In this document: positions 36,079 through 51,858 of the stretch, one piece after another
How positions within the stretch are numbered: position 1 is the stretch's first letter
Layout: each line of letters begins with the position of its first letter
Source of the DNA: Bdellovibrionales bacterium
Lineage (GTDB): Bacteria > Bdellovibrionota > Bdellovibrionia > Bdellovibrionales > CAYMLA01
Assembly: GCA_965217115.1 (NCBI GenBank)
Contig: OZ244239.1
Coordinates: 1,696,001 to 1,760,000, forward strand
DNA: 64,000 nucleotides
Direction of reading: 5' to 3'
Position numbers and translations under genes: made by a program
The notes under the pieces: model-generated
What the model was told of the DNA's origin: nothing
Database searches by the model: none
The model's input: only the letters and a program-made list of their open reading frames with translations

Positions 36079-37068
36079 ATGAATGTAGATATTATGGCAC
36101 TCAATGAAACCATAAAAGTAGAAAGCCGTTTTATTAGCGATATGATGAAAGAAGTTTCAAAGGTTATCGTCGGTCAAGAGGAAATGGTTGAGGGGATTTT
36201 GATGGGATTACTCACAGGAGGACATGTTCTTTTAGAGGGAGTCCCTGGGTTAGCTAAAACATTGACGATCTCTTCAGTGTGTCAAGCGATCTCTTTGGAT
36301 TTTAATCGCGTTCAGTTCACTCCAGATTTATTGCCCACCGACCTTATTGGAACCATGATATTTAATCCAAAAACAGGGGAATTCACACCCAAGAAAGGTC
36401 CCGTATTTACTAACTTGGTTTTAGCGGATGAAATCAATCGCGCTCCAGCAAAAGTTCAGAGTGCTCTCTTAGAAGCAATGGCCGAAAAACAAGTTACCAT
36501 TGGTGACAACACACACATTCTAGAAAAGCCCTTTTTGGTGTTGGCAACACAGAATCCACTGGAGCAAGATGGGACATACCCTTTGCCAGAGGCGCAGATG
36601 GATCGTTTTATGTTTAAAATTCTCGTTGATTATCCACATAAAGAGAACGAGATGGAGATATTAAATCGCATGTCCTCTAATGAAAGTCCTCAGGTAGAAG
36701 CCATCATCAGTAGGGAGCAATTATTGAGGGCTTCAGCCCATGTGGATTCTATCTATGTTGATGACAAGGTAAAAAACTATATTGTAGAAATTGTGATGAG
36801 TACACGAGAGCCAGAGGAATACGGTTTGAGCTCTATTGCAAATTTAATCTCAGTAGGCTGTTCTCCCCGCGCAACGATTAGTTTAGTAAGATCAGCCAAG
36901 GCTCACGCTTTTTTAAGAGGTCGAGGGTATGTGACGGCAGAAGATGTAAAAGCCGTGACTTATAATGTTCTTCGTCACCGTTTAATACTAACTTACGAAG
37001 CTGAGGCAGAAGAGATGAAAAGTGATGATGTGATTAAGCAAATTCTTAATCACATTGAGGTGACTTAG
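36079..37068 (+). CDS. moxR: MoxR family AAA+ ATPase
   Basis: EGVPGLAKT, QFTPDLLP, DEINRAPAKVQSALLE, ATQNP. Confidence 0.95.
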   Translation: MNVDIMALNETIKVESRFISDMMKEVSKVIVGQEEMVEGILMGLLTGGHVLLEGVPGLAKTLTISSVCQAISLDFNRVQFTPDLLPTDLIGTMIFNPKTGEFTPKKGPVFTNLVLADEINRAPAKVQSALLEAMAEKQVTIGDNTHILEKPFLVLATQNPLEQDGTYPLPEAQMDRFMFKILVDYPHKENEMEILNRMSSNESPQVEAIISREQLLRASAHVDSIYVDDKVKNYIVEIVMSTREPEEYGLSSIANLISVGCSPRATISLVRSAKAHAFLRGRGYVTAEDVKAVTYNVLRHRLILTYEAEAEEMKSDDVIKQILNHIEVT

Positions 37069-37952
37069 TGGTTTCAACTCTTCCTCTAGAAATTCATAGG
37101 AAGATTAAACTTCTTGAATTAAACACTCGTCGCTTGGTGAATGATATCTTTTCAGGAGAATACAAATCGTCCTTTAAAGGGCAGGGGATGACTTTCTCTG
37201 AATTTCGTGAATACGTCCCTGGGGATGATGTTAGAAATATTTCTTGGACATTGACCGCCAAGGTGGGAAAGGCCCATGTAAAAATTTTTGAAGAAGAAAG
37301 AGAACAAACTCTTATGCTCGCTGTTGATATAAGTGGTTCTTCAAATTATGGAACAGGTGAGTATCTTAAAGGAGAGGTCATGGTGCATTTAGCGGCGCTC
37401 TTGGCCTTTTCTGCGATAAAAAACAATGACAAAGTAGGATTGCTTCTTTTTACCAATCAAGTGGAGCTTTTTGTGCCTCCTAAAAAAGGCAGAGGGCAAG
37501 TTCATCGTATTTTGCGCGATCTGTATTACTTTAAACCCAAAAGTAGAGGAACTTGCCTATCCATACCTTTGGATTACCTAAGTGGTGTCCTTAAGAAGAA
37601 CACCACTGTTTTTGTAATGAGTGATTTTATGGATAAGAATTGTCACCGTTCATTCCGCTTATTGGCTCGTAAACATGAAGTGATAGGAGTTGTTGTGGAG
37701 GACTCCTCTGAATATAAAATACCAGACATGGGTGTGGTGGATTTACATGATGGAGAGACAGGTGAGTTGCTCACTGTGGACACGTCATCTTCGTCATTTA
37801 GAAAGAGTTTTGAAGATCTATCAAAAAAGCGACGTTTGCAAAGAGATAGAGAGCTTAAGAAATCTCTTGTAGACTGCATTAATATTTTGGACGGCGAAGA
37901 CTTTGTTGATCCACTTATTGCTTATTTTAAGAAAAGACGAGCGAGAGGTTGA
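37068..37952 (+). CDS. DUF58 protein
   Basis: GQGMTFSEFREYVPGDDVRNISW, DISGS. Confidence 0.92.
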   Translation: MVSTLPLEIHRKIKLLELNTRRLVNDIFSGEYKSSFKGQGMTFSEFREYVPGDDVRNISWTLTAKVGKAHVKIFEEEREQTLMLAVDISGSSNYGTGEYLKGEVMVHLAALLAFSAIKNNDKVGLLLFTNQVELFVPPKKGRGQVHRILRDLYYFKPKSRGTCLSIPLDYLSGVLKKNTTVFVMSDFMDKNCHRSFRLLARKHEVIGVVVEDSSEYKIPDMGVVDLHDGETGELLTVDTSSSSFRKSFEDLSKKRRLQRDRELKKSLVDCINILDGEDFVDPLIAYFKKRRARG

Positions 37953-37960
37953 AGCTTTAA

Positions 37961-38890
37961 ATGGCAAAAAGTAAAGAGCTAGAAAAAAAACAAAAAAAAA
38001 CAACGGAGACACAGAAATCGGCTTTGATTTGGCAGTGTGATCTAGTTGCAAATTCTCAATCCACAGGTCAGATCACTGTTGGAAGCCCTATTCATATGCA
38101 CTGTGAGGGTACGAAAACTATTTTTAATTCTAATAAGCTAGAAATTTTGTTAAACAAAAAACAAAAATATGTTCTCCATCTTCTTAAGGTGGAGAACATA
38201 TCAGAAACTGAAATGGACCTGATTGTTACAAGTTATCAAGCAGGACAGCATCAGTTAAAAAACTTTCAATTATCTGATGGAAATGATTTTGTCGACAGTG
38301 GGCCTTTGCAGTTCAACGTGACTTCTGTTTTAAAAAAAGAAGCTAAGCCTTTTGGGCCTTTTGGACCCATTGGTCTAGAGAGGCCTACATGGTATTGGAC
38401 ATCAATTGGAGTGATTGTTGGATTGATCACCATTGTCGCACTATTGAAATTTCGGAAAAGTTGGCAGAGAAAAAAAATAATCAAAAGGTTAGAATCTCAC
38501 GGAACGGCGTTATCTGCCTATAATCAATTAAATAAGGAATTACGTTCTTTAGATAGAGAATTAACTCTTCAAAGGCAGAGAGTATCCGACACAGAGCAAC
38601 TAGAGAGAACCCACAGAGAGCACATAAGAGAATTGGAAAAAAGTTTTCGAATGTATTTGGTTAGAGAGCTAAAGGTTCCAGCGATGGAATGGTCAAACAA
38701 ACAAATTCTTGGGGAAATTAAAAGAACGGACAAAAAATTGTTTAAATCTCAGAATGCTTCAATTGAAAAATTATTATTGGAGTTCAAAAGATTAAATAAA
38801 ACAAATGAGGAATTCACTTTGTCTGATTGCCAACAGATGAGACGGCTTTGTCGTGATTGCTGTGATCTTCTTTATAAGGAGAGGAATTAA
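37961..38890 (+). CDS. Bat-operon single-TM hypothetical protein
   Basis: Located between DUF58 and batA; one TM helix. Confidence 0.7.
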   Translation: MAKSKELEKKQKKTTETQKSALIWQCDLVANSQSTGQITVGSPIHMHCEGTKTIFNSNKLEILLNKKQKYVLHLLKVENISETEMDLIVTSYQAGQHQLKNFQLSDGNDFVDSGPLQFNVTSVLKKEAKPFGPFGPIGLERPTWYWTSIGVIVGLITIVALLKFRKSWQRKKIIKRLESHGTALSAYNQLNKELRSLDRELTLQRQRVSDTEQLERTHREHIRELEKSFRMYLVRELKVPAMEWSNKQILGEIKRTDKKLFKSQNASIEKLLLEFKRLNKTNEEFTLSDCQQMRRLCRDCCDLLYKERN

Positions 38891-39897
38891 TGTCATTTAA
38901 AACATGGTATGCCTTTTTCCTAATAATGCCTCTATTATTTGTGGTGTTCTGGAGTTGGTGGGAAAGAAAGGCTAAACGACCTTCTATTCAATTTTCAAAA
39001 ATAGATCTTTTCAAAAAGATAGAGGCTTCTTGGCGCGTCCATTTGATGGGGTTACCGACTTTTTTAAAAATGACAGCTTTGATTTTGGCCATAGTTGCCT
39101 TGGCTCGACCGCAAAGGGCTGATGAGAGAGTGAAGAGAAATGTGGAAGGCATAGATATTGTGATTGCTTTGGATGTCTCTGACAGTATGTTGATTGAGGA
39201 TATGAAGCCATCGGCAAACCGTTTAGAATCGGCTAAGGAGACGATTCGTCAATTTATTGACAAGAGATTATCTGACCGTATTGGGTTGGTTGTTTTTTCA
39301 GGAGAGTCGTACACACGGGTTCCATTGACTCTGGATTACCAACTTTTACAGAAATCTCTAGAAGAAGTACAGATAACAAGAACGGTTAAAATGGGAACGG
39401 CCATTGGAGTGGCCTTGGCAAATGCTGTGGGGCGATTGAGGGAGTCAAAGGCTAAGAGTCGGGTGATTGTTTTTTTAACTGACGGTGAGAACAACAGCGG
39501 AACGATAGACCCTGAAACAGCACTAGAGATAGCTAAGGGATATGATATAAAAATTTACTCTATTGGTGTCGGTAGGGATGGAAACACACGTTTGCCGATA
39601 ATGACGAGAGATGTTTTTGGTAGAAAAGTAAAACGTTATCAACCTTTTTATAGTAAAGTGAATGAAGAGTTACTTGGAAAGATGGCCAAGGAGACAGGAG
39701 GAAAGTTCTACCGTGCGACATCATCTGGAGTCTTAAAGAGTGTATTTAATAATATTGATCGTTTAGAAAAGAGTAAAATAGATGAAAAACATTATGTCAA
39801 ATATGCAGAATTGTTCCCCAATTGGTTAAAGATGTCTCTATTACTTTATCTGTTAGCGTTTTTCCTAGGAAGAACATGGTTGAGGAGGATGCCTTGA
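38890..39897 (+). CDS. batA: VWA-domain protein BatA
   Basis: ALARPQ, DVSDSM MIDAS, GTAIG, LTDGENN. Confidence 0.88.
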   Translation: MSFKTWYAFFLIMPLLFVVFWSWWERKAKRPSIQFSKIDLFKKIEASWRVHLMGLPTFLKMTALILAIVALARPQRADERVKRNVEGIDIVIALDVSDSMLIEDMKPSANRLESAKETIRQFIDKRLSDRIGLVVFSGESYTRVPLTLDYQLLQKSLEEVQITRTVKMGTAIGVALANAVGRLRESKAKSRVIVFLTDGENNSGTIDPETALEIAKGYDIKIYSIGVGRDGNTRLPIMTRDVFGRKVKRYQPFYSKVNEELLGKMAKETGGKFYRATSSGVLKSVFNNIDRLEKSKIDEKHYVKYAELFPNWLKMSLLLYLLAFFLGRTWLRRMP

Positions 39898-40961
39898 TAT
39901 TTAAATTTGCAGCTCCTGGATTTTTCTATCTTTTAATATTATTGCCACCGATTATTTTATTTTCTGTGTGGTTGCAGCGGTGTGCCCGAAAGAAAATTCA
40001 TGATCACCTCGGCAAAAGGCTTGCACCTTTTTTGGTGTCATCTGTTTCTAAAAGTAAGAGACACTGGAAACTTATTTTAGAGTGCTTGGTGATACTCTTT
40101 GGCCTTTTTTCTTTGGCGCGTCCTCAATCGGGTAAGGAAACTCAAGAGATAAAAAGCGAAGGGGTGGAGTTAATTTTAATGATTGATGTTTCCACCAGTA
40201 TGTTAGCAGAGGATGTGCGCCCGAGTCGGTTAAATTTTGCAAAAAAAGAGATGGAAAAGATTTTAGGATATTTAGATGGAGATAAAGTAGGAATTGTGGC
40301 CTTTGCAGGCTCGGCGGCATTGCTATCACCGATGACGGTGGATAAGTCAGCTCTATTAATGTATTTGGACTCCTTGAGTACGTCTTCGGTGGGGTCCCAG
40401 GGAACGGAGTTTAGTAGGGCTTTGCAGGAGGCAGGTGCGGCTTTTCTCAGAGGAGGAGTTCAGAGAGACGGAAAAAATCAAGTGACAAGGGTCATTGTCA
40501 TTGCTTCTGATGGTGAAGATAATGAAAAAGGAGCGATACAGGAGGCTGAGAAATTATCTAAAGAAGGAGTGCATATTTTTTCTTTGGCTTTTGGAACGGA
40601 AAAAGGTGCGCCGATTCCTTTGAGAGATGGCAACGGTTATTTAAGAGAGTACAAAAAAGACGAGAGTGGAAAAGTGATTCTGAGTCAGACAAAGGGAACT
40701 ATTTTAAAAGAATTGTCACGAATTGGGCATGGAAGTTTTTATCATGCGACCTTTGATAGCGAGGTAGCAGAAAATATTGTAGCGGATATACAGAAATTAC
40801 AAAAAACACAATTTGCTAGCGCAAGTATCGTTAATTATAATGAGTTGTACCAAATTTTCTTATTGATAGCGATATTATTAGGGATTTTAGAAATATTTTT
40901 GGGTGAGAAAAAATCAGGAAGAAGCTTGTGGAAGGGGCGTTTTGAGGTGACAGAGAAATGA
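39894..40961 (+). CDS. batB: VWA-domain protein BatB
   Basis: DVSTSMLAEDVRPSRL, SDGED; TTG start after AGGAGG. Confidence 0.85.
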   Translation: MIFKFAAPGFFYLLILLPPIILFSVWLQRCARKKIHDHLGKRLAPFLVSSVSKSKRHWKLILECLVILFGLFSLARPQSGKETQEIKSEGVELILMIDVSTSMLAEDVRPSRLNFAKKEMEKILGYLDGDKVGIVAFAGSAALLSPMTVDKSALLMYLDSLSTSSVGSQGTEFSRALQEAGAAFLRGGVQRDGKNQVTRVIVIASDGEDNEKGAIQEAEKLSKEGVHIFSLAFGTEKGAPIPLRDGNGYLREYKKDESGKVILSQTKGTILKELSRIGHGSFYHATFDSEVAENIVADIQKLQKTQFASASIVNYNELYQIFLLIAILLGILEIFLGEKKSGRSLWKGRFEVTEK

Positions 40962-41746
40962 TTAAACACATATCTCCAATGAGAAGTTTGCCCATTGCTG
41001 TATCATTTTTACTGGTTATTTTTTCGGAGACTGCTATTTGTGCAGGAGATTATTTAAAAGAATTAAACGTGATTGAGAAGAATAATTCTGCCATAGAGGC
41101 TCTAAAGGAGAAGCAATTAGGGAGAGCATTTAATTCAGTGATCGAAGGTTTGGGAGAAGCTCCTAAGCAAATGGTATTATTATTTAATTTAGGGTTGATT
41201 TATGAGTTTCAGAAAAAACCTGATAAGGCATTGAAAGCTTATGAGCAGGTGCTTGTAGATAAGGCAGCACCTGCAGAGATTCGTTTTTTCAGTGCATTTA
41301 ATATAGCTCGTATTCATGGCGTAGGAAAAAACATTGCTAAAGCATTGAAATATTATCAGAAAGCTTTAGAATTTAAATCTGATTCTGTCGAAGTGAAAAC
41401 CAATATTGAGCTTCTGACAAAACAACAGAATGGCCAGGGAAAGGGGAACGAAGAGAAAAATAATAAGGGAAAGGATCAGGAAAAGGATCAGGAAAAGGAT
41501 CAAGGAAAGGATCAAGGAAAGGATCAGAAAAAGGATCAGGAAAAAGAGAATGATGGTCAGAAGGGTGATAAAAAGCCTGATTCAAATAAAACTAAGGACC
41601 GTAAGAAGCCATTTAAAAGCAAAGAATTGACTGAGGATGACGTGAGAAAGATTTTAGAAGAATTAAAGCAACAAGAAACAAAAATCCGCACGAAAATAAA
41701 TCAGGAGAAGGGCAAGAATGACTCCCCTAATATTAAAGACTGGTAA
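40958..41746 (+). CDS. batC: TPR protein BatC with 12-bp KDQx tandem repeat
   Basis: TPRs, low-complexity linker, C-terminal KDW. Confidence 0.82.
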   Translation: MIKHISPMRSLPIAVSFLLVIFSETAICAGDYLKELNVIEKNNSAIEALKEKQLGRAFNSVIEGLGEAPKQMVLLFNLGLIYEFQKKPDKALKAYEQVLVDKAAPAEIRFFSAFNIARIHGVGKNIAKALKYYQKALEFKSDSVEVKTNIELLTKQQNGQGKGNEEKNNKGKDQEKDQEKDQGKDQGKDQKKDQEKENDGQKGDKKPDSNKTKDRKKPFKSKELTEDDVRKILEELKQQETKIRTKINQEKGKNDSPNIKDW

Positions 41747-43652
41747 AATATTATTAAATCTTGTTTTTTTCTTTAGCTTCTCTGTCCATGCACTGGCGAC
41801 TGAGGGCAGTATTGAAGTTCATGCAAAAGTAAATCGTAATAAAATGGGTCTGAATGATAAGCTCAACCTTTCGGTGGTTGTGGTGAGCGAAGAAAGTATG
41901 ATTGTTGAAGAGCCGAGGATACCTCAGCTTGTGGGCTTTGAACTACTCAATACTTGGACAAGTCAAAGCTCTCAAACACAAATTGAACAAGGCCCACAGG
42001 GAATGGAGGTTAAGACAACTAAAATAAAACAATTTGAATATATTTTATCTCCAAAAAAGAAAGGTATCTTGGTAATAAGCTCTTTTAGGGTAAATGTTCA
42101 GGGTAAGATATATAAAACAAAACCGATAAGGATTCAAGTTGCTAAGAGGTTTTCATCACCACCAGTGACAAAAAAAAATCGTGGTAGAGGTCTTGGAAGA
42201 GGCAGAAAAATAGACCCTTTTTCATCAGAACCATTTTCTGAAGTTGAAAAAATGTTCAATCAACTTCTGCAACGCCAAAGAGGAGGAGGCTTTTCAGGCA
42301 GCAAAGGGGAATTAAAAAAAGAAATTTTAGACCCTAAGGAAGTTTTCTTTATTCAGGCCGAGGTGGATAAAAAAGAAGTTTATGTGGGAGAACAGGTGAC
42401 GGTGAGTTGGTATATTTATACCCGTGGGGCTATTGAGTCTATTGATCGTTTGAAATTCCCTGTTTTGAAAAATTTTTGGAAAGAGGATATCGATGTGTCC
42501 CCGTCGTTGCGTTTTCATCAGTACCTAGTGAACGGGTTACCCTATCGTCGTGCTCTTTTAGGCTCTTACGCGTTATTTCCAATCAAAGCTGGTCAAGCAG
42601 TGATCGATTCTTACAGTGTTAGGTGTCGAGTTCGATTGAATACTCGTTTTGGTTTAGGTCGATCACGTCTCTACACGAAAAAGAGTAGGGTGTTAAGAAT
42701 TAAAGTTAAAAGCCTTCCTAAAGTAGGAAAACCTGATAGTTTTACAGGGGCTGTGGGTCACTTTCAGGTAAAGTCAGATGTAAATGCTCACCAGTTCCCA
42801 GTTAATCAACCGTTCTCTATAAAAATTCGTTTTGAGGGAGAGGGGAATGCAAAACTCATAGATATTCCAGCTATTAGATGGCCTGAGCACCTTGAGCTTT
42901 ATGATACCAAAAAAGAATCAAAATTTTTTAAAACAGGGAAGTCCTATAAAGAGTTTGAGGTGTTACTAATACCTCGCCGCGAAGGAAAAATTAAAATCCC
43001 CTCAATGAAGTTGGGGTTGTTTAATCCAAAATCGGGAAAATATGAAGAGAAATCAACAGATGAGATAGAGTTAGAAATAACTCATGGTCGCCAAGATGGA
43101 GTGATAGCTTCTAGTCGTAAATTACCAGAGTTTAAGAAGAAGATAGAAGAGAGAGAAGATTTGCCACTGATGATTCTCTCCGCAGAGAGAGACCCTATTT
43201 TGAGTGAAATGCAGGAGAAATGGATGTGGGTAGGTATTTATTTTTTAATTCTTTTATTCTTAATTTGGTACGGCAGTGTTCAGTTAGGTTGGGGAGATAA
43301 GAAAAAAAATCTACAGGAGCAGGTGAGTCAGAGGATAAAATTGATCTTTAATAAGATAGAGAAAGGTGATCACCGTTCTATTGGCAGTGAAATGACCAAT
43401 TTGGTGTACTTCGTTCTTGGAGAGATCAGTGGACAAGGTGGGGCTAATTTAGAGTTTAGCAAACTCATGGAAAAAGCACCGCCGAGTGTTCGTAAAGAGC
43501 TGAAAAAACCTTTGGGAAAGCTAATGAATTCCTTTGAAATTATAGGATTTGCTCCAGACTCTGTTATAGGAGACTTAAAAGAGAAAGAAGAGTTGAGGCT
43601 TTTAGTGAAAAAGATGGAAATCGTCTTACTAAAGGCGATTCAAAAAAACTAA
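41718..43652 (+). CDS. batD: BatD family protein
   Basis: VDKKEVYVGEQV, FTGAVGHF, GEGN; last gene of the operon. Confidence 0.88.
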   Translation: MTPLILKTGKILLNLVFFFSFSVHALATEGSIEVHAKVNRNKMGLNDKLNLSVVVVSEESMIVEEPRIPQLVGFELLNTWTSQSSQTQIEQGPQGMEVKTTKIKQFEYILSPKKKGILVISSFRVNVQGKIYKTKPIRIQVAKRFSSPPVTKKNRGRGLGRGRKIDPFSSEPFSEVEKMFNQLLQRQRGGGFSGSKGELKKEILDPKEVFFIQAEVDKKEVYVGEQVTVSWYIYTRGAIESIDRLKFPVLKNFWKEDIDVSPSLRFHQYLVNGLPYRRALLGSYALFPIKAGQAVIDSYSVRCRVRLNTRFGLGRSRLYTKKSRVLRIKVKSLPKVGKPDSFTGAVGHFQVKSDVNAHQFPVNQPFSIKIRFEGEGNAKLIDIPAIRWPEHLELYDTKKESKFFKTGKSYKEFEVLLIPRREGKIKIPSMKLGLFNPKSGKYEEKSTDEIELEITHGRQDGVIASSRKLPEFKKKIEEREDLPLMILSAERDPILSEMQEKWMWVGIYFLILLFLIWYGSVQLGWGDKKKNLQEQVSQRIKLIFNKIEKGDHRSIGSEMTNLVYFVLGEISGQGGANLEFSKLMEKAPPSVRKELKKPLGKLMNSFEIIGFAPDSVIGDLKEKEELRLLVKKMEIVLLKAIQKN

Positions 43653-43682
43653 CCCGCACAACATCGTCTTGATACTGGCGGG
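43642..43682 (-). terminator. Probable terminator of the riboswitch-containing RNA
   Basis: CCCGC...GCGGG followed by TTAGTTTTTTT on the minus strand. Confidence 0.5.
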
Positions 43683-43757
43683 CCTTTAAGATGAAAGGTT
43701 TGAATTTTTCATTTAGATCTCCTTCCTTACGCGGCTTTTGCCAACGGTCCGTTTACA

Positions 43758-43844
43758 CCTCTGGCAGCTGGCTGGCATTATCAAAAGACTTAGCCCCTGT
43801 AGCTTTGCGTCCTGTCGTTTCCAACAGTTTGCCTTTGGCAAAGG
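43758..43844 (-). ncRNA. c-di-GMP-I (GEMM) riboswitch aptamer
   Basis: Minus strand CCTTTG-CCAAAGGCAAACTGTTGGAAACGACAGGACGCAAAGCTACAGGGGCTAA...GCCAGCCAGCTGC-CAGAGG; P1, GAAA tetraloop and GACGCAAAGC junction. Confidence 0.9.
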
Positions 43845-44112
43845 AAATTGATCGTGAAAATGTTCTAGGTCCTCCTTGATTCTATAGGTAACACAGTGCT
43901 GACTGCATTTCTGAATTATGGGGGGGATTCAGAGATTTGGCACAACACCGTTACCATCAAACATCCTCCTTTCAACTGGTCTTTAGAATACTGCAACTCT
44001 TGAAAAACATCTAGAACTGTGGAGTAAAGGGTCTAATATTGAGACACTGAGTTTGATTTGGGCAAATGAGCCACTTTTCAGATGAGTCTTTGCTATTAAG
44101 TTCAGACATAAA

Positions 44113-44904
44113 TTAAGTAAAAGTTTTTTTGATCCTTTCAGCAATAACAGAAAAAGCCTTTCCTTCCTCTCCAGTGGGGTGGCTCTCAATGATGGGAATA
44201 CCAGCTTCGCTAGAAATACTGACAGACAGATTAAAGGGAATCTCACCTAATTTGGGGAGGCCTTTTTGTTCGAGATAGGAGTCGAGTTCTCCTTTGGGGA
44301 AAAGTTGCACTTTTTCTTTTGATTCAGGGGCAATAAGATAAGACATATTTTCAATCAAGCCAATGTGAGGAATTTTTACGGTGTCGAACATATCGATGAA
44401 TTTTTTGACATCTATAAGAGCTAAGTTTTGTGGAGTGCATACGGTAATAGCTCCAGAAACAGGAACTTTTTGAGCGATGGTGAGTTGAATATCGCCTGTT
44501 CCAGGGGGCATATCGATAAGGAGGTAATCTAACTCTCCCCATTCAACATCGCGAAGAAATTGGTGTACAGCCTTAAAGAGCATGGGGCCACGCCAGACAA
44601 CAGCATGATCCTCTTCAACAATGAATCCGATGCTCATGATTTTAAGACCAAGCCTAGAAATAGGAATCATCTTTTGATCTTCAGTGAACATAGGTTTTTG
44701 GTTGATAGCTCCAAAAATTCGTGGAATGCTTGGCCCGTGAATATCAGCATCTAAAATCCCAACCTTGGCTCCTTTTTTGGCAAGAGCCAGAGCGAGGTTA
44801 GAGGTGATGGTGCTTTTTCCCACGCCTCCTTTGCCTGATCCAATAGCAATGATGTGCTTAATACCGTCAATAGGAGACTGTTGGTCAAAAGGATTTGTCG
44901 TCAT
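44113..44904 (-). CDS. mrp: Mrp/NBP35 Fe-S carrier ATPase
   Basis: SGKGGVGKST, DADIHGPS, WRGPM, DMPPGTGD, ENMS. Confidence 0.93.
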   Translation of the reverse strand: MTTNPFDQQSPIDGIKHIIAIGSGKGGVGKSTITSNLALALAKKGAKVGILDADIHGPSIPRIFGAINQKPMFTEDQKMIPISRLGLKIMSIGFIVEEDHAVVWRGPMLFKAVHQFLRDVEWGELDYLLIDMPPGTGDIQLTIAQKVPVSGAITVCTPQNLALIDVKKFIDMFDTVKIPHIGLIENMSYLIAPESKEKVQLFPKGELDSYLEQKGLPKLGEIPFNLSVSISSEAGIPIIESHPTGEEGKAFSVIAERIKKTFT

Positions 44905-45133
44905 AAGTTTTCCGTTTTTGGGTGAGGGTTCATCGTGTTTTTGCCGTAAGATTTTTACTGTAGCTTTTTTACTATGGAATCTCTTACTGTGGAGTTTCTT
45001 ACTGTGGAATCATATTTAAATCAAAATTCTTCTAAAAATTCATATTTTAATGGCTTTATGTAAAAAATTCATATAGTAAATTGCATCGAATCAAGATAGT
45101 CTTTGCGAGTGATTTTTCTGATGGGAGGACTAA

Positions 45134-46558
45134 TTGAAGACACTAGGCATGTTATTCTTTTTTTGTTTGTTGTTTTGTGGAGAGTTTCAATCATTTTCTT
45201 TCGCAGTATCGACGAAGCCATCATCGAAGTCGTCATTAAGGAGTGTTTTTTTAAAAAAATATCTACAACATTATTTAGCTGAGGATGAATCTCTACAACA
45301 GGCAAAGATAGATCACAAAATTTCTTTAGAAAAGAGTAGAGGAGAAACTGCTTTTTGGAATTCTCAATTATATTCAGGTCCACAGGTAAGAGAATTAAGA
45401 ACAGAGTTGTCTCTGATGGAGAGTTTTGGAAAAAACTCTCTATGGAAAAATAGGCTTGAACAAAGAACGCCATGGGGAGGTGCCCTGTCTATTGAATACA
45501 ATCAACTTCTTGGCGATGATACGTTAAATTCAGCGACGACTAAATCACAGACAGCTTTTTCTTTTGAGAAGTCCCTTTATCGCAATGGATGGGGGCAAGA
45601 AGATAGCTTGAAAGTAACGGCAGCTAGAAAAAGAGTGCGTCGTTCAGCCTTTAGTGAACAGTCCAGTTATCAGATAAGTTGTCTTCAAGGAATCAAAAGT
45701 TATTTGGAATCTTATACATCTCAAGAGAAATTGCAGATTTCTTTGGAAGTAGAAAAAGCGGCACAAAAGGTGTTTAATAAATTAAAAAAAGCATACAAGA
45801 AAAAATTAATACGGAAAATAGATTGGCTAGGCGCTCAAGCAGATTATTTAAAAACTCAATCTCAAAGAAGAGACAGACAGAGGCTTCATAGATTAGAAAT
45901 GGTGAAATTTTCATCTAAAGCACAGATAAGTTCTGAAACATGGTTCTTGAAGAAGCCCCAAGATATTGAATTACAGAAAGGAATTAATTGGCAAGACGGA
46001 ATAGAGCTTAAGGGGTTAAATAACCTATTGGAGCAGAGAGAAGCTGAGAAAAAGAAAGCTGAATTGGATGGGCAAGGAGATCTGGGGTTTCAGGTTCAAC
46101 TCTCAAACACTCAAGGTTACAGTCTGGCAGCAGGGGATAATTTCCAACAAGCAAATTGGGTGGTTTCGTTGAATTTTTCATGGCCCCTGTACAATGGAGT
46201 TTTGAAGTCAAATAAGAGTCAAGCAGACTTAAGAGTTCTAAGAACTTTTAAAGAGATTAAAAAACAAAGAAAAAATAGCTCGATTGAGTGGAGAAGAGCC
46301 TTGATCTCTCTAGAAAATCAAAAAGAACAGGAGGGTTTTAATCGTCGGCAACAGATTATAGAAAAGAAACGAGTTCTTGAAGCAAGAAGACTTCTTATTA
46401 CAGGGAGAATCGAATTTGAAAACTACATCAGTTACCGAGATCAGAGATTTAGTAGTCGTCTGAAGTACTTAGATCTCTTGCAAGAGAAGATATTATTAAA
46501 GGCATCATTGTTAAGGTTAAGTGGATATCTAGGGCGTTTCTGTGAGGGACTTCTATGA
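45134..46558 (+). CDS. TolC-family outer membrane protein
   Basis: Signal peptide, helix/beta repeat pattern (SLNFSWPLYNG), overlaps RND start. Confidence 0.75.
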   Translation: MKTLGMLFFFCLLFCGEFQSFSFAVSTKPSSKSSLRSVFLKKYLQHYLAEDESLQQAKIDHKISLEKSRGETAFWNSQLYSGPQVRELRTELSLMESFGKNSLWKNRLEQRTPWGGALSIEYNQLLGDDTLNSATTKSQTAFSFEKSLYRNGWGQEDSLKVTAARKRVRRSAFSEQSSYQISCLQGIKSYLESYTSQEKLQISLEVEKAAQKVFNKLKKAYKKKLIRKIDWLGAQADYLKTQSQRRDRQRLHRLEMVKFSSKAQISSETWFLKKPQDIELQKGINWQDGIELKGLNNLLEQREAEKKKAELDGQGDLGFQVQLSNTQGYSLAAGDNFQQANWVVSLNFSWPLYNGVLKSNKSQADLRVLRTFKEIKKQRKNSSIEWRRALISLENQKEQEGFNRRQQIIEKKRVLEARRLLITGRIEFENYISYRDQRFSSRLKYLDLLQEKILLKASLLRLSGYLGRFCEGLL

Positions 46559-49500
46559 GGAGGTTAATAGATTATTTTGCTGGTCGTTCTTTTATTGTAA
46601 ACTTACTTGTTATTTTTGTATGTGTTGTAGGTTATTTGGCTATGACATCTATGAATAGAAGTCTAGTGCCATCTTGGGAACAGCGTCAAACTGTTGTGAA
46701 TGTGCTTTTACCGGGAGCTTCGTCTCAAGAGATGGAACGCCTAGTGACTTATCCCATTGAGATTGCATTAAAAGATTTGCCTGGAGTGGAAAAGATAACA
46801 TCTTCAAGTGGTGCAGGCTATTCCAGAATTCGGTTGTATTTTGAAGATAGCTATGAAGATTTAGATAAAGTGACAGAGAATGCTCGCGCCCGTGTGGAAG
46901 GGCTTCGCAATCGATTGCCAGAGTCAGTTCGTTCCATTACGGTAAAAAGAATTAAAAAAGAGACTGAAATTCTCATGTATATCTCTATTGAAGGAGCTGA
47001 CGATTTTAATTTTGAACACCGCAGGCGGATAAAAAAACTCTCTAAAAAAATCGAAAATATTAAAGGAATTTCTTTCGCCGCAGATCATATGCGAGAACAA
47101 GAGATTGTTATTCATCTGGACCCAGAGAAGCTTAATTTCTATGGTCTATCGACCAGTGATGTGCGTGGTAAGATCAGTCGCTATCGTGCTTATGCACCAA
47201 TAGGACAGATTACGCAGGATGAAGATGTCTACAACATTGAAGTATCAAATTCTGTGGCCTCGATCGAAGAGCTATCTAAAATCCCTATTAGTTCTAATCG
47301 CAGTGGTTACATTGTGCGATTACAAGATTTGGGAAAGGTGAATTACGATCTATCCCAGCGATCGTTCTTGATGAGAGTGAATGGGAAAAGAGCTGTTTTG
47401 ATGAGAGTAGAGAAGGGATCTTCTGCGGACACTATTGATCTTGGCAAAGAAGTCAAAGAAGTAGTAAATCGCTTCAATAAAAAATATTCCACGTTAAAAG
47501 CAGAGATTATGTTTGATCTACCATTTTTTTTAGAGAAACAGTTAGAGAGTTTAAAAGTAAATGGATTTTTAGGCCTCCTATTTGTTTTTGCGATGATGCT
47601 GTTGTTCTTTGATTGGAGAGCGGCGCTCATGACAATTATTGGTTTGCCAGTAGTTTATTTGGGAACTTTTATTGTTCTCGCTTATCTAGGTATACCTATT
47701 AATCTTATCTTTATTGTTGGGATGTTATTGATCTTAGGTATTTTGGTGGATGATGCGATCATTGTTTCTGAAAAATACATGGCAAATTTAGAAAGTGGTC
47801 TTGAGCCTAAGGAAGCTGCAGTCAAAGCGGCACAGGCTCTGATTATGCCAGTGACAGGAACAGTGTTGACTACGGTTGTGGCTTTTTCTCCATTGTTGTT
47901 AGTGAAAAGTAGTTTTTCAAATGTTTTTTTTGCGCTTCCTGTTGTGGTAATTGTGGCTCTTAGCTTGAGTTGGATTGAAGCTTTTTTTATTCTTCCCAAT
48001 CATTTGCAGCATATTGTGAAAAAAAATAAAAATAAGAAAATTGATGTGTTCAAAAAGCTCCGTCAAAAATATGAACAGATATTAAAGGTCTTTTTTAAAT
48101 ACAGATATATCACCTTACTGGCTAGCCTTGTTTTCATAGTCATTTCAGGCTATGTGGCTCTTAATAAGGTAGAACATCAATTTAATCTACAGATTGGTTT
48201 AGAGAGAGTCGATGTAACAGTTATTTTAAAAAGCAGTGGTTCTTTTGAAGAGACGGAAAAGAAGCTTAAGCCGCTGTCTGATTATTTAAACAAAATGGGA
48301 AGTCGACAAGTAGATGCGGTGCAAACAAAAATTGGTTCTATGTGGTATCAAGGAAAACAATTAAAAGGGGATCGTTATGCTCGTTTTTCTATTTACATAG
48401 ATAAGGAGGCTAAATACCCTGGAGAGGTCAAAAAAACTCTAGAAAAAAGAATTCAAAGTGGAGTGAAAAAGTTTAAAACAGATGACTTTGAAGAACTAAA
48501 TGTTCGGGGGCTCAGGGAAGGGGACGAGAAAAGAAAGCTTCAACTGGTTTCGATCAGTGTTCGTGGGGCTGAGGATATTGATTTCACCGATATAGAGAAA
48601 GTAATCATTGCCCATGCATTGAAGACAAAAGGTGTGAAAGAAGCGGCCATGAATGAAGAGATGTACGAAGTGTCTTGGAGGTTTCACCCTAATCACCAAG
48701 CTTTACAGCAGTATGGATTGACGCCAGCCACATTGGCCCATCAAATACGGGGGTTTTTCACTAAAAACTTTCTAAGTGAGATTCGTCTTCATGGAGAACC
48801 ATTAAATCTTTATACAAAAATTATAACGGAGGAAAATATTAAATTTGAAAACCTAAAGTCATTTCATGTGGTGAGTTCCAGAGGAGTTAAAGTTCCGTTG
48901 CCTTTTTTAGGGAAGTGGGTTTCGGGTCGGTCTTTAAAGGAAATTTTTCATAAAGATGGTTTACGGAATTTAACATTGGATTTCAAACTAGATCAGAAAG
49001 AAGGCAATGCGAGCTTAGTGATAGATAGATTGAAGAAAGCGCTCATTCCTGTGCAAAAGAAGTTTCCAACCTATGAGATTGAGGTGTCGGAAGCTGACAA
49101 TCAGGCGAAGGAAGGTAAGGCTTGGGGCTTAAAAATAGCGATAATTTGTCTGGGTGGAGTGTTGTTGATTCTGTCATTGGTATTGGGGTCTTTATCCCAA
49201 CCTTTCTTGGTGGGGCTGCCAATCCCTTTTGGATTGGCAGGGATTATATGGGCGCTGTATCTCCATGGACTTCCTTTGAGTGTTATGGCAATTGTAGGAG
49301 TTGTCGGAGTGATCGGCGTTGCAGTGAACGATTCCTTAATTATGGTCGATGGTATAAATAAGCTCTGTCAGGGGAGAGGAGTGAAGATGAGTCGAAGTTT
49401 GTTGATTGATGGAGCATCTCAGAGGTTGCGAGCTATTGTGTTAACAACGATGACGACTCTTGGCGGTGTTTTGCCTATGGCTTATTCGTGGGGAGGAGAG

Positions 49501-49668
49501 TCGGGATTTACTCAACCTCTGGCATTTTCTATTGGTTGGGGATTATTATTCTCCACGTTGATGACGTTGTTTGTGTTGCCACCTCTTTTGGAAATTAGGG
49601 AGGATATTCTCTCTTTAGGAAGAGGCTTGCTATTTAGAGGGAAAAACCAGAAATCCCACCAAAATTGA
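46555..49668 (+). CDS. RND efflux transporter (AcrB-like)
   Basis: 1037 aa, PGASSQEMERLVT, GILVDDAIIV, RLRAIVLTT. Confidence 0.93.
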   Translation: MRRLIDYFAGRSFIVNLLVIFVCVVGYLAMTSMNRSLVPSWEQRQTVVNVLLPGASSQEMERLVTYPIEIALKDLPGVEKITSSSGAGYSRIRLYFEDSYEDLDKVTENARARVEGLRNRLPESVRSITVKRIKKETEILMYISIEGADDFNFEHRRRIKKLSKKIENIKGISFAADHMREQEIVIHLDPEKLNFYGLSTSDVRGKISRYRAYAPIGQITQDEDVYNIEVSNSVASIEELSKIPISSNRSGYIVRLQDLGKVNYDLSQRSFLMRVNGKRAVLMRVEKGSSADTIDLGKEVKEVVNRFNKKYSTLKAEIMFDLPFFLEKQLESLKVNGFLGLLFVFAMMLLFFDWRAALMTIIGLPVVYLGTFIVLAYLGIPINLIFIVGMLLILGILVDDAIIVSEKYMANLESGLEPKEAAVKAAQALIMPVTGTVLTTVVAFSPLLLVKSSFSNVFFALPVVVIVALSLSWIEAFFILPNHLQHIVKKNKNKKIDVFKKLRQKYEQILKVFFKYRYITLLASLVFIVISGYVALNKVEHQFNLQIGLERVDVTVILKSSGSFEETEKKLKPLSDYLNKMGSRQVDAVQTKIGSMWYQGKQLKGDRYARFSIYIDKEAKYPGEVKKTLEKRIQSGVKKFKTDDFEELNVRGLREGDEKRKLQLVSISVRGAEDIDFTDIEKVIIAHALKTKGVKEAAMNEEMYEVSWRFHPNHQALQQYGLTPATLAHQIRGFFTKNFLSEIRLHGEPLNLYTKIITEENIKFENLKSFHVVSSRGVKVPLPFLGKWVSGRSLKEIFHKDGLRNLTLDFKLDQKEGNASLVIDRLKKALIPVQKKFPTYEIEVSEADNQAKEGKAWGLKIAIICLGGVLLILSLVLGSLSQPFLVGLPIPFGLAGIIWALYLHGLPLSVMAIVGVVGVIGVAVNDSLIMVDGINKLCQGRGVKMSRSLLIDGASQRLRAIVLTTMTTLGGVLPMAYSWGGESGFTQPLAFSIGWGLLFSTLMTLFVLPPLLEIREDILSLGRGLLFRGKNQKSHQN

Positions 49669-49893
49669 ATTTACAAAACCTATGAAAGTCTTCTACATGT
49701 TTTCTTATAAGGCCTTTTATAGAATTTGATTGAATCAAATTGAAAATATTATATATTTCTAGAATAGGTAGAGAAAATATGTAATTTCAAATATTATAAT
49801 CGAGCAATTGGTTGTAATACATTTTGTTGTCAATGAGTATTAGTGTTTGGAAAATTCATTATTTTTATAAGCATACACAGGAAAGGTTGGGAA

Positions 49894-51858
49894 ATGAAAG
49901 AAATTAAGTTATTTTTGCTAACGATTTTTTTGGGAACCCCTTTTACTTGGGCAAAGATGACTTATCTGAGTCAGGTGGAAGATAATCGAGTTGTTGTGCT
50001 AGCCAATGATGATGGTTCAGAGGGAAGAGTGGTTTCTCCTCAAGATAAGCATGCCTATCATCCAGAGATAAGTTCTGATGGCCGTTATTTGGCTTACTCA
50101 GTGGGAACGATTCTTCCAAACCGTAAAATTGATGTAGCAATTCATGTGAAAGATTTGCAAACAGGGGATATCGAAGTGTGGACTCCCTCGGGGAATCAGT
50201 ACATTCATGCAGAGTTTTCAGGTGATGGAGAATACTTGGCCTTTAGTATGCCAGTTGAGAGAGAAGGAAAAAAAATTCAGAATATTGCTTTGGTGAATTT
50301 AAAAGAAGAAAGAAAAAAAAGAGCTAAAAAAGTGAAGGCTATAGATGGGGTGAAACATAGGTTTTACTCTCCTGACCTTGAAATTATTCAAAGTAAATAC
50401 CATTCTTATTTTCCAGCCATAGCTTCTGATGGTGCATTTGTTATTTACCATAGAACCAAAGATGTATCGTCTAAATCAACTCCTAAAGAAGTGGTTTTAT
50501 ACGATCGTTGGTCAAAGGAGACGACATTATTAACAGCTCCTAATGGTCATGGGATGGTGCCCTCATTATCATCAGATAATCGTCATATAGCTTATACAGG
50601 AATTCTTAATGGAGTGTGGGACATTCATTTGATTGATCGTTGGACGAAAGAGATCACCCAAATCACTCATTCACCGGACAAGGAGTTCACTCCTGTTTTT
50701 GCTCCTGATGGATCTATTAGTTACTCTCACATTACCGAAAAAGAAGACCTTTTCGAAATTGATATTTATAAAATTAGCAAAGAGGATGTTTTTGGCCATA
50801 GAGGGAAGGTGATTCCTCGACCCCTCATTAATGAGGTGGGAGTTTTTGAGTATGTACCTTCTTTTTCAGGGGATCTTTCCATTGAATTAAGACAGTATAG
50901 TGATATTCCAAATCCGGCGCGTTCCTCTTTTGCAACGGTTAAGAAAGGTCAGAAAATTTATGTGATCGGGGGGCATCAGGGGAAAGAGCATACCTATCCG
51001 CCAGAATCTTTTTTAAAGAGGTTGGATATTTATGATATTACAACGGGAACATGGTCTCAAGCGGCTTCAATGAACTTTGCCAAGCATGGATTTCAGGCTG
51101 TGGTTCATGGTAGGTATATTTATACGTTTGGTGGATTTGCTTTTTCAGCTAATCATAAACCAGGCTGGAAATCTCTGGACGTAGTTGAGAGATATGATGT
51201 TGAAAAAAATAAATGGACAGTTTTAAAGACACGTCTGCCAAGAAGAAGATCATCGAATGTCTCTATTAAGATGAGAAACAAGGTCTACCTTTTAGGTGGC
51301 TGGAACAGCACGCCTAAGCATGAAGGGGATTTTAATGGAAAGTTTCATCAAGAAATCGATGTCTTTGATCTTAATAACGAGACAGTGGAAGTTTTAAAAG
51401 AAAAATTACCACAACCCTTGAGAAGAGCTTTAACTGGAGTGACCGTTGGCGATGAAATTATTTTATTAGGTGGAATTTCAGAAGGAGGAAGTCATTTTAA
51501 ATGGTTAGACCATGTGACTGCTTTTAATGTGAAGAATAATGTGTGGAAGGAGTATCCTAAATTACCATTTAAAACATTTGCCCCAGGAGCAGGAGTTGCT
51601 AATGGAAGGTTGTTTCTTCTTGGTGGAATGAACGAACAATTTGAGTATTTGAATACGATCTATAGTTTTGACCTTCAGAAAAAGAAGGAGTGGGTAAATA
51701 CAGGAAGATACTTAAAAGAGAATAAAGGCTTCCCACAAGTGATCAATCTAGATAAAGATTCATTGGGGATTCTTGGTGGGCACACATATATTTTTGAAGA
51801 TGATGGAAACGTGGTAGATACACCCGTATCAACTTTTGAATTACTTTTGGTCGAGTAA
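49894..51858 (+). CDS. Secreted TolB/PD40-like propeller + Kelch-repeat protein
   Basis: Signal peptide; PxxSxDG repeats followed by IYVIGG / YTFGG / YLLGG Kelch repeats. Confidence 0.82.
   Translation: MKEIKLFLLTIFLGTPFTWAKMTYLSQVEDNRVVVLANDDGSEGRVVSPQDKHAYHPEISSDGRYLAYSVGTILPNRKIDVAIHVKDLQTGDIEVWTPSGNQYIHAEFSGDGEYLAFSMPVEREGKKIQNIALVNLKEERKKRAKKVKAIDGVKHRFYSPDLEIIQSKYHSYFPAIASDGAFVIYHRTKDVSSKSTPKEVVLYDRWSKETTLLTAPNGHGMVPSLSSDNRHIAYTGILNGVWDIHLIDRWTKEITQITHSPDKEFTPVFAPDGSISYSHITEKEDLFEIDIYKISKEDVFGHRGKVIPRPLINEVGVFEYVPSFSGDLSIELRQYSDIPNPARSSFATVKKGQKIYVIGGHQGKEHTYPPESFLKRLDIYDITTGTWSQAASMNFAKHGFQAVVHGRYIYTFGGFAFSANHKPGWKSLDVVERYDVEKNKWTVLKTRLPRRRSSNVSIKMRNKVYLLGGWNSTPKHEGDFNGKFHQEIDVFDLNNETVEVLKEKLPQPLRRALTGVTVGDEIILLGGISEGGSHFKWLDHVTAFNVKNNVWKEYPKLPFKTFAPGAGVANGRLFLLGGMNEQFEYLNTIYSFDLQKKKEWVNTGRYLKENKGFPQVINLDKDSLGILGGHTYIFEDDGNVVDTPVSTFELLLVE

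Follow-up and report, generated by a model that had tools for sequence, protein, structure and literature searches.

The closest described relative of the RNA reported here is merRNA of Bdellovibrio bacteriovorus HD100, a stand-alone RNA with a class I cyclic di-GMP (c-di-GMP-I) aptamer beside mrp (Karunker et al. 2013, PMC3627812). In the parts of that report available to us, merRNA is a 445 nt RNA (1,073,741-1,074,185) between Bd1131 and Bd1134 mrp with massive attack-phase expression, described from two strains as non-coding, lacking a conserved open reading frame (ORF) downstream and not conserved outside those strains; the supplement table rows carry no strand. We analysed a 64,000 nt stretch (the window) of the Bdellovibrionales bacterium assembly GCA_965217115.1 (contig OZ244239.1, positions 1,696,001 to 1,760,000), which carries an RNA of this type on its minus strand between mrp and batD. 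Like HD100 merRNA, for which the same partial source lists no FliA promoter, it is the one match in its genome. It differs from HD100 merRNA in its predicted length (about 335 nt), in the convergent batD, in the loss of peptide signatures and in a host genome in which no flagellin was found. Among several readings that are not fully exclusive we rank first, tentatively, that the window RNA is a stand-alone c-di-GMP-gated ribosome-loading switch (translational ON) in which micro-ORFs are the sole cistrons and the output is translation rather than the peptide.

Other c-di-GMP-I (GEMM-I) systems share part of this layout. Like the Vibrio cholerae Vc2 riboswitch, the window RNA matches the Rfam family RF01051, has the pocket bases G20, A47 and C92 and carries a platform that sequesters a Shine-Dalgarno (SD) sequence; unlike Vc2-type riboswitches, it would control a frame of 8 codons within the same terminated transcript and not a protein gene. 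The available part of a further Vc2 study (10.1101/617340) describes control of upstream small RNA (sRNA) stability, and the output of the window RNA may likewise be its own fate. There Vc2 lies at the 3' end of the sRNAs and before tfoY, whereas the aptamer of the window RNA comes before a platform, an ORF and a terminator. In Clostridioides difficile, as far as the source was available (PMC13724677), class I riboswitches precede small ORFs in a life-cycle switch, as here, and the small proteins are multi-copy, membrane-associated and repressed by termination; the window RNA, in contrast, is present in one copy, has frames of 8-14 codons and is a predicted translational ON device. Among the literature matches listed for merRNA and for Bdellovibrio or Bdellovibrionota riboswitches there was no report of merRNA micro-ORFs or of a switch, and no Bdellovibrio ribosome-profiling study was found, subscription journals being outside the scope of these searches.

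The aptamer and its relation to merRNA

The aptamer was located with a covariance-model search, and the gene beside it was compared across the order.
43758 to 43844, minus strand: c-di-GMP-I aptamer (RF01051) with G20, A47 and C92
44113 to 44904, minus strand: mrp (NUBPL/ParA P-loop NTPase; PF10609, E 4e-95), the upstream syntenic neighbour, outside the RNA

The RF01051 match at 43760-43843 on the minus strand scored 71.5 bits (E 4e-14, model positions 1-87) against a gathering cut-off of 35 bits and was the sole match in the 2.17-Mb single-contig genome (99.4% completeness). The initial annotation had placed a c-di-GMP-I aptamer at 43844-43758, and the P1 helix, CCUUUG (43844-43839) with CAGAGG (43763-43758), has these same ends. 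Using the base roles given in the available part of PMC5888326, the pocket is made of G20 at 43833, A47 at 43806 and C92 at 43764. The G that had been read earlier at the Vc2 G20 position was correct, and the sequence points to a canonical c-di-GMP pocket. All three bases were present in 30/30 loci chosen by covariance model alone. The clan sibling c-di-GMP-I-GGC scored 61.4 bits in a whole-Rfam scan. We take a G at the A47 position to be the mark of this variant (RF03167), as its name implies, and it was ruled out because the window RNA has an A where the model consensus has a G; position 47 was an A in the same 30/30 loci. The 3',3'-cGAMP (cyclic GMP-AMP) riboswitch class (GEMM-Ib), for which we presume an A at position 20 to be the criterion, was ruled out by the G at 43833. 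A relaxed-threshold Rfam scan of 43500-45300 gave nothing else close to a gathering score. With its score above the cut-off, its pocket bases and a platform that competes with P1, the RNA is a known type, a member of RF01051. Contigs from four DNA runs, all from one sample, one of them near-identical and possibly the source of the window DNA itself, carried neither indels nor substitutions across positions 43640-44000.

Exactly one RF01051 match was found in 33 of 61 genomes of the order. Thirty loci were fetched from the 33 genomes with a match, and mrp lay within 1.5 kb in 21 of them, upstream on the same strand in 19 and convergent in 2. The window RNA likewise adjoins mrp outside any gene and has a single aptamer between a predicted promoter and a terminator, and for the named B. 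bacteriovorus record L089 the promoter rule used here predicts an RNA length near 445 nt. By mrp synteny and the one match per genome, the window RNA is a merRNA orthologue, in agreement with the homology that had been proposed. No decayed aptamer was found beside mrp at 27 mrp loci from the 28 match-free genomes; elsewhere in these genomes only the strict filter was applied.

Relatives were collected using a pattern scan of genome contigs, which gave at least 120 loci, biased by the pattern and mostly from named Bdellovibrionota records. Loci below 44 bits, duplicates, 4 Fictibacillus rows and 6 loci that lacked a 3' anchor were removed, which left 100 RNAs for comparison, 85 of class A (merRNA type) and 15 of class B, of which one or two may be mis-sorted because the split rests on the 5' tract. 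Two loci (L131 and L132) place two aptamers about 1.4 kb apart on one contig, an exception to the single copy. Two records titled Streptomyces griseus and Bacillota (L102, L146) carry class A elements, one of them beside mrp, and are probably mislabelled bins.

Competitor helix and micro-ORFs

In folding models the strand that forms the 5' side of P1 and J1/2 also pairs 3' of the aptamer, so that the window RNA appears to be wired as a switch. Neither this competitor helix nor the two SD-led micro-ORFs were part of the initial annotation.
43839 to 43847, minus strand: tract B plus the P1 5' strand (UUUCCUUUG), the switching strand
43735 to 43744, minus strand: anti-J1/2 strand (UUGGCAAAAG), the predicted ligand-free pairing partner of the P1 5' strand and of J1/2; co-varies
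43719 to 43728, minus strand: element D, the SD of the downstream micro-ORF (AAGGAAGGAG), predicted to lie paired with tract B when ligand is absent
43870 to 43878, minus strand: element A, a second SD-like block without a start codon (CAAGGAGGA), which can pair with tract B
43686 to 43712, minus strand: downstream micro-ORF MKNSNLSS followed by a stop, homologue of the ...F[HY]SP-stop ORF with the peptide motif lost
43965 to 43972, minus strand: strong SD of the upstream micro-ORF (AAAGGAGG), -11.6 kcal/mol
43916 to 43957, minus strand: upstream micro-ORF MVTVLCQISESPP followed by a stop, positional homologue of the ...D-x-x-P-[KE]-stop ORF with a degenerate signature

All folds are ViennaRNA secondary-structure models in which tertiary contacts and ligand energy are left out. 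The competitor pairing in the window RNA was predicted at -16.2 kcal/mol (z -3.0), and z was below -2 in 46/83 class A RNAs. J1/2 and its downstream complement co-vary: an RNA's own strand ranked in the best quartile in 71/97 RNAs, class B included, with a double-centred diagonal of -1.97 kcal/mol (permutation p 0.0001, for lineages that are not independent). The cost of forcing P1 in the window RNA rose from 2.1 kcal/mol for the aptamer alone to 6.0 with shuffled tails and 14.4 with the native tail; the medians (n=74) were 3.4, 6.7 and 9.4 kcal/mol. The binding fold was more than 1 kcal/mol costlier with the native than with the shuffled tail in 61/74 class A RNAs and the opposite was seen in 2. 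The helix buries element D and, in the window RNA, the AUG too, and modelling the bound state opened D in 37/73 relatives and closed it in 3. The SD of element D (-8.8 kcal/mol) is in the top 16% for the window genome. Element A was found in 61/75 relatives compared to 7-13 in shuffles, and a start codon follows it in 9 of the 61.

The same competitor helix is present in the class B RNAs (Bacteriovoracaceae/Oligoflexia records), with z below -2 in 12/14. These are unlike the window RNA in that no micro-ORFs were seen, mrp was nearby in 0/8 and a same-strand gene follows in 8/8. At the class B loci L032, L051, L057, L061, L080, L090, L092 and L094 a terminator-like hairpin comes first and then the same-strand gene; the downstream gene was a radical SAM gene in 5 of 6 tested.

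The folding costs bear on the proposal that the RNA is a sponge or store, in which a highly abundant transcript takes up c-di-GMP and gives it back as the RNA refolds or decays, with the competitor helix as the release device. The sponge proposal and the abundance data for HD100 merRNA (PMC3627812, from the parts available) speak for it, as do the pocket bases kept in all 30 unbiased loci and the lack of a conventional gene after the RNA, the nearest long downstream ORF being convergent in 47/67 class A loci. A native tail that destabilises the binding fold in 61/74 RNAs is, however, the opposite of what a store needs, and in these models the competitor helix would lower ligand capture. A sponge also leaves unexplained the coding ORF and the three SD-like blocks, and the presence of the same helix in class B RNAs before a radical SAM gene. 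The switch wiring and the micro-ORFs therefore make the RNA look less like a passive sponge, an outcome we consider unlikely, and the 'ligand sponge' of the initial annotation was not borne out as stated given the 14.4 kcal/mol cost. Some sponging may still accompany a high abundance of the RNA as a by-product. Its 'no regulated gene' was half right: no conventional gene follows, but an SD-led micro-ORF lies behind the competitor helix.

An ATG follows element D in 56/73 relatives, and among these the stop falls within -12 to +6 nt of the terminator stem in 33 and inside or past the stem in 19. The MKNSNLSS frame keeps the SD, the ATG and an in-frame stop at the terminator foot in the homologous place. 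In 42/82 class A RNAs the downstream frame carries F[HY][SC]P, nearly always written TTT CAT TCC CCT and followed directly by a stop in 35/42. This motif shares the frame of the D-linked ATG in 33/43 and lies in another frame in 10/43. Its codons show no alternative synonymous use beyond CCT/CCC, so the motif is constrained as RNA; from these comparisons the downstream frame appears to be favoured and its letters fixed as RNA. In the window RNA a remnant of the underlying RNA element (element E) lies at 43698-43688 inside the micro-ORF and the UCCCC part is lost. A sequencing error behind the lost FHSP frame was rejected because the contigs show no indel. The downstream ORF of family f2 crosses the terminator, and there the C-rich terminator loop encodes prolines.

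The upstream micro-ORF has an SD of a strength reached by 1.8% of 1381 ORFs of at least 200 aa in the window genome. An SD-led ORF with a proline in its last two residues was found in 52/83 class A RNAs, whereas ten shuffles gave 0-3 each and the reverse strand gave 1. A [DN]xxx[KE]-stop end with any start was found in 63/83 compared to 1-5 in shuffles, the motif having been defined on the same data. The window ORF is among the 52 and outside the 63. DPPP[EK] endings (n=20) use all four proline codons and all three stops. Judged by the ending counts against shuffles and the varied proline codons and stops, the upstream ORF in relatives is coding. Family f3 (L007, L013) has two tandem SD-led micro-ORFs upstream of the aptamer, ending DPPPE-stop and FPPPI-stop. 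Family f4 (L002, L028, L029, L030) has an upstream ORF of about 28-31 codons without a strong SD, its ATG at the predicted start site in L028 and L030, and this ORF is probably leaderless. The short family f2 (L003, L006, L011, L012, L020, L022) has no upstream ORF, with the promoter directly before the aptamer in 5/6.

Switch and micro-ORFs are thus kept across several families of relatives, contrary to the published description. The window RNA departs from 'non-coding', and B. bacteriovorus records L089 and L110 also carry both micro-ORFs, so that the merRNA description itself is corrected and the window RNA is not excluded from merRNA.

The conserved endings could also mean that the peptides are effectors, with upstream ...D-x-x-P-[KE] and ligand-induced ...F[HY]SP C-termini binding partners that set attack-phase behaviour. 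The upstream C-terminal signature in 63/83, which includes the leaderless f4 and comes from the data that defined it, fits this idea, and there is precedent in the riboswitch-controlled small proteins of C. difficile (PMC13724677, in the part available). It is distinctly unlikely as both signatures are lost in the window RNA with the wiring intact, the downstream motif shows no synonymous variation and sits outside the frame in 10/43, and family f2 lacks the upstream part.

In another reading the RNA is a ligand-gated base-pairing sRNA that would act in trans at low c-di-GMP, repressing many mRNAs through its C-rich element E and through C-rich loops. Element E is the complement of an SD plus an AUG-AAA start region and is nucleotide-invariant in 42/82 class A RNAs, and the C-rich seeds of RsaE/RoxS or RNAIII reportedly act on mRNAs in trans in this way. 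The models have E more open in the free state in 9/37 and in the bound state in 0, and C-rich loops recur in the terminators of families f2, f3 and f12 and in the 5' hairpin of f1. Exact E complements outside the RNA numbered 6 in 5 genomes compared to 3 for the reversed control, and 4 of the 6 were at clear starts of long ORFs. The search pattern itself holds an SD and an ATG, so matches at ORF starts are expected. The genes concerned look mutually unrelated by eye, and a search of the 5 genomes with one exact pattern found no conserved trans targets. The window RNA has lost the UCCCC part of E, and E can pair with D in cis. We therefore hold an sRNA function to be improbable.

Proposed mechanism and transcript boundaries

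Sequence comparison shows the aptamer, the competitor helix, the SD-ATG-stop-terminator layout and, among relatives, an upstream ORF that is coding; the proposed mechanism adds predicted transcript ends.
43985 to 44013, minus strand: predicted sigma-70-type promoter, TAGATG-17 nt-TATTCT, with the -10 ending at 43985
43642 to 43684, minus strand: intrinsic terminator hairpin plus U run (z -3.61), overlapping the batD stop codon
43887 to 43955, minus strand: long hairpin over the upstream ORF (z -1.37), with a C-rich loop at about 43926-43917
41718 to 43652, plus strand: batD (PF13584), convergent neighbour, not conserved beside the RNA

In the ribosome-loading switch that we favour, the promoter would fire near 43978 and ribosomes would enter at the strong 5' SD to translate the proline-ended upstream ORF. 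Without c-di-GMP, 43847-43832 would pair with 43744-43719, blocking P1 and burying both the SD in D and the AUG. Binding of c-di-GMP during transcription would lock P1 and free D, and a ribosome would then translate the 8-codon ORF through element E and stop at the terminator foot. The output would be ribosome occupancy of the 3' part, altering the fold of the RNA, its lifetime or the exposure of E. An output other than the peptide sequence is supported by the window RNA having lost the downstream peptide motif and kept the SD, ATG and stop.

Several results count against this switch. A longer 5' strand puts the RNA's own partner in the top 10% for only 17/83, and ViennaRNA folds P1 poorly even for the aptamer alone. 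In the full-length model of the window RNA, D is unpaired at 0.29 when free and 0.30 when bound, staying closed because it can re-pair with the E remnant, and 33/73 relatives likewise show little change at D. Class B relatives keep the competitor helix without a micro-ORF. By the SD-ATG rule, 17/73 relatives, including the f12 loci examined, lack an ATG after D, although this rule overlooked an ORF known in the family sibling G001 as well; an ORF therefore does not accompany the switch in every case. The window upstream ORF lacks the family signature and G001 lacks such an ORF, so that in the window it could be chance or decaying.

It is also conceivable, if about as improbable as the sRNA or slightly more so, that the RNA parks ribosomes, with up to three SD-type sites and slow-to-finish proline-rich ORF ends storing the ribosomes of the attack phase. 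c-di-GMP would open the third of these sites, and upon entry into prey the RNA would refold or decay and so free ribosomes and messenger together; the attack phase would be non-growing and the RNA would equal all mRNAs combined in abundance. PPP and APP belong to the EF-P-dependent stall motifs, and certain C-terminal sequences prevent termination (PMC3638311, in the part available); PP is absent from the upstream ORFs of many members, including B. bacteriovorus. If true, the window genome would show the device outliving the flagellum and the peptide sequences. ARAGORN run on the window genome listed 37 tRNAs and no tmRNA. Shielding of the RNA from RNase J by SD-bound ribosomes was rejected because the window genome gave no match to the RNase J family.

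The promoter scored 10.0 compared to 9.4 for the 95th percentile of shuffled regions and was the top site in the region, a score that is partly circular because the matrix was trained on class A RNAs, its own family. The start near 43978 is inferred from this site, and the length, 334 nt by the promoter rule, assumes start and end offsets. The terminator has a stem at 43684-43651 followed by 7 U at 43648-43642, and 0/200 shuffles were equally stable. It begins 74 nt past P1 and batD ends at 43652, consistent with the terminator-like hairpin and convergent batD end previously noted within about 80 nt of the aptamer. A generic promoter and terminator scan listed neither of these elements. The upstream hairpin at 43955-43887 folds as had been described but was not significant on its own (18/200 shuffles as stable); the matching hairpin of G001, with the same C-rich loop, had z -5.22. 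A functional tie to batD was dismissed since batD adjoins the RNA in 1/30 loci, the window's own. It closes a complete, ordinary moxR-DUF58-unknown-batA-batB-TPR-batD operon (36079-43652, plus strand). Genes for an outer-membrane efflux protein and an RND transporter and then a Kelch-repeat protein occupy 45134-51858 (plus strand).

Host genome and meaning

The window genome gave no family match to flagellin, FliG, rod/hook proteins or FlhA; FliA, CsrA, FliW and just two GGDEF proteins are present. On the genome contig, outside the window, fliA lies at 981686-982360 and fliW and csrA at 1077262-1078008; the ORFs adjoining fliA resemble FlhF and FlhG by eye. Flagellar regulators were thus retained after loss of the flagellum. 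Eight genomes had no flagellin, and of these only the window genome has the RNA, compared to 32/53 genomes with flagellin. The presence of the RNA in a genome in which no flagellin was found means that in the window lineage it is independent of swimming. The GGDEF genes are at 993873-994874 and 906999-907931 (both minus strand, outside the window). By eye the receiver-GGDEF protein has a Ser at the selectivity site, as in the cGAMP-making Bd0367, and the other has an Asp, so the cell may make both messengers. GGDEF presence was rejected as an explanation of the RNA's distribution because 61/61 genomes have GGDEF, and csrA because it is in 55/61.

The retained csrA and fliW, in a genome with no flagellin found, would suit titration of CsrA by GGA sites exposed under c-di-GMP control, as would an ANGGA count of 4.1 per RNA compared to 2.6 expected (5 compared to 1.5 in the window RNA). 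Most of the excess comes from the SD-like blocks, GGA by itself hardly exceeds expectation (9.9 compared to 8.8), and csrA, present in 23/28 genomes without the RNA and 32/33 with it, does not discriminate, which leaves CsrA titration very improbable.

Of the RNAs reported in the model predator, merRNA ranks with the most abundant, and since 2013 there has been only a guess at what it does. The comparison turns this guess into points for mutation, namely the competitor strand, the SD in D, the two start codons and element E. What is new from the window is that both peptide signatures and the flagellum are lost with the RNA wiring intact. The window genome is in this sense a natural experiment, a reduced relative in which no flagellar structural genes were found, and it separates the job of the RNA from swimming and from the peptide sequences. 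If the ribosome-loading switch is true, its architecture would be unusual, a riboswitch that acts through the loading of ribosomes onto the very RNA that contains it.

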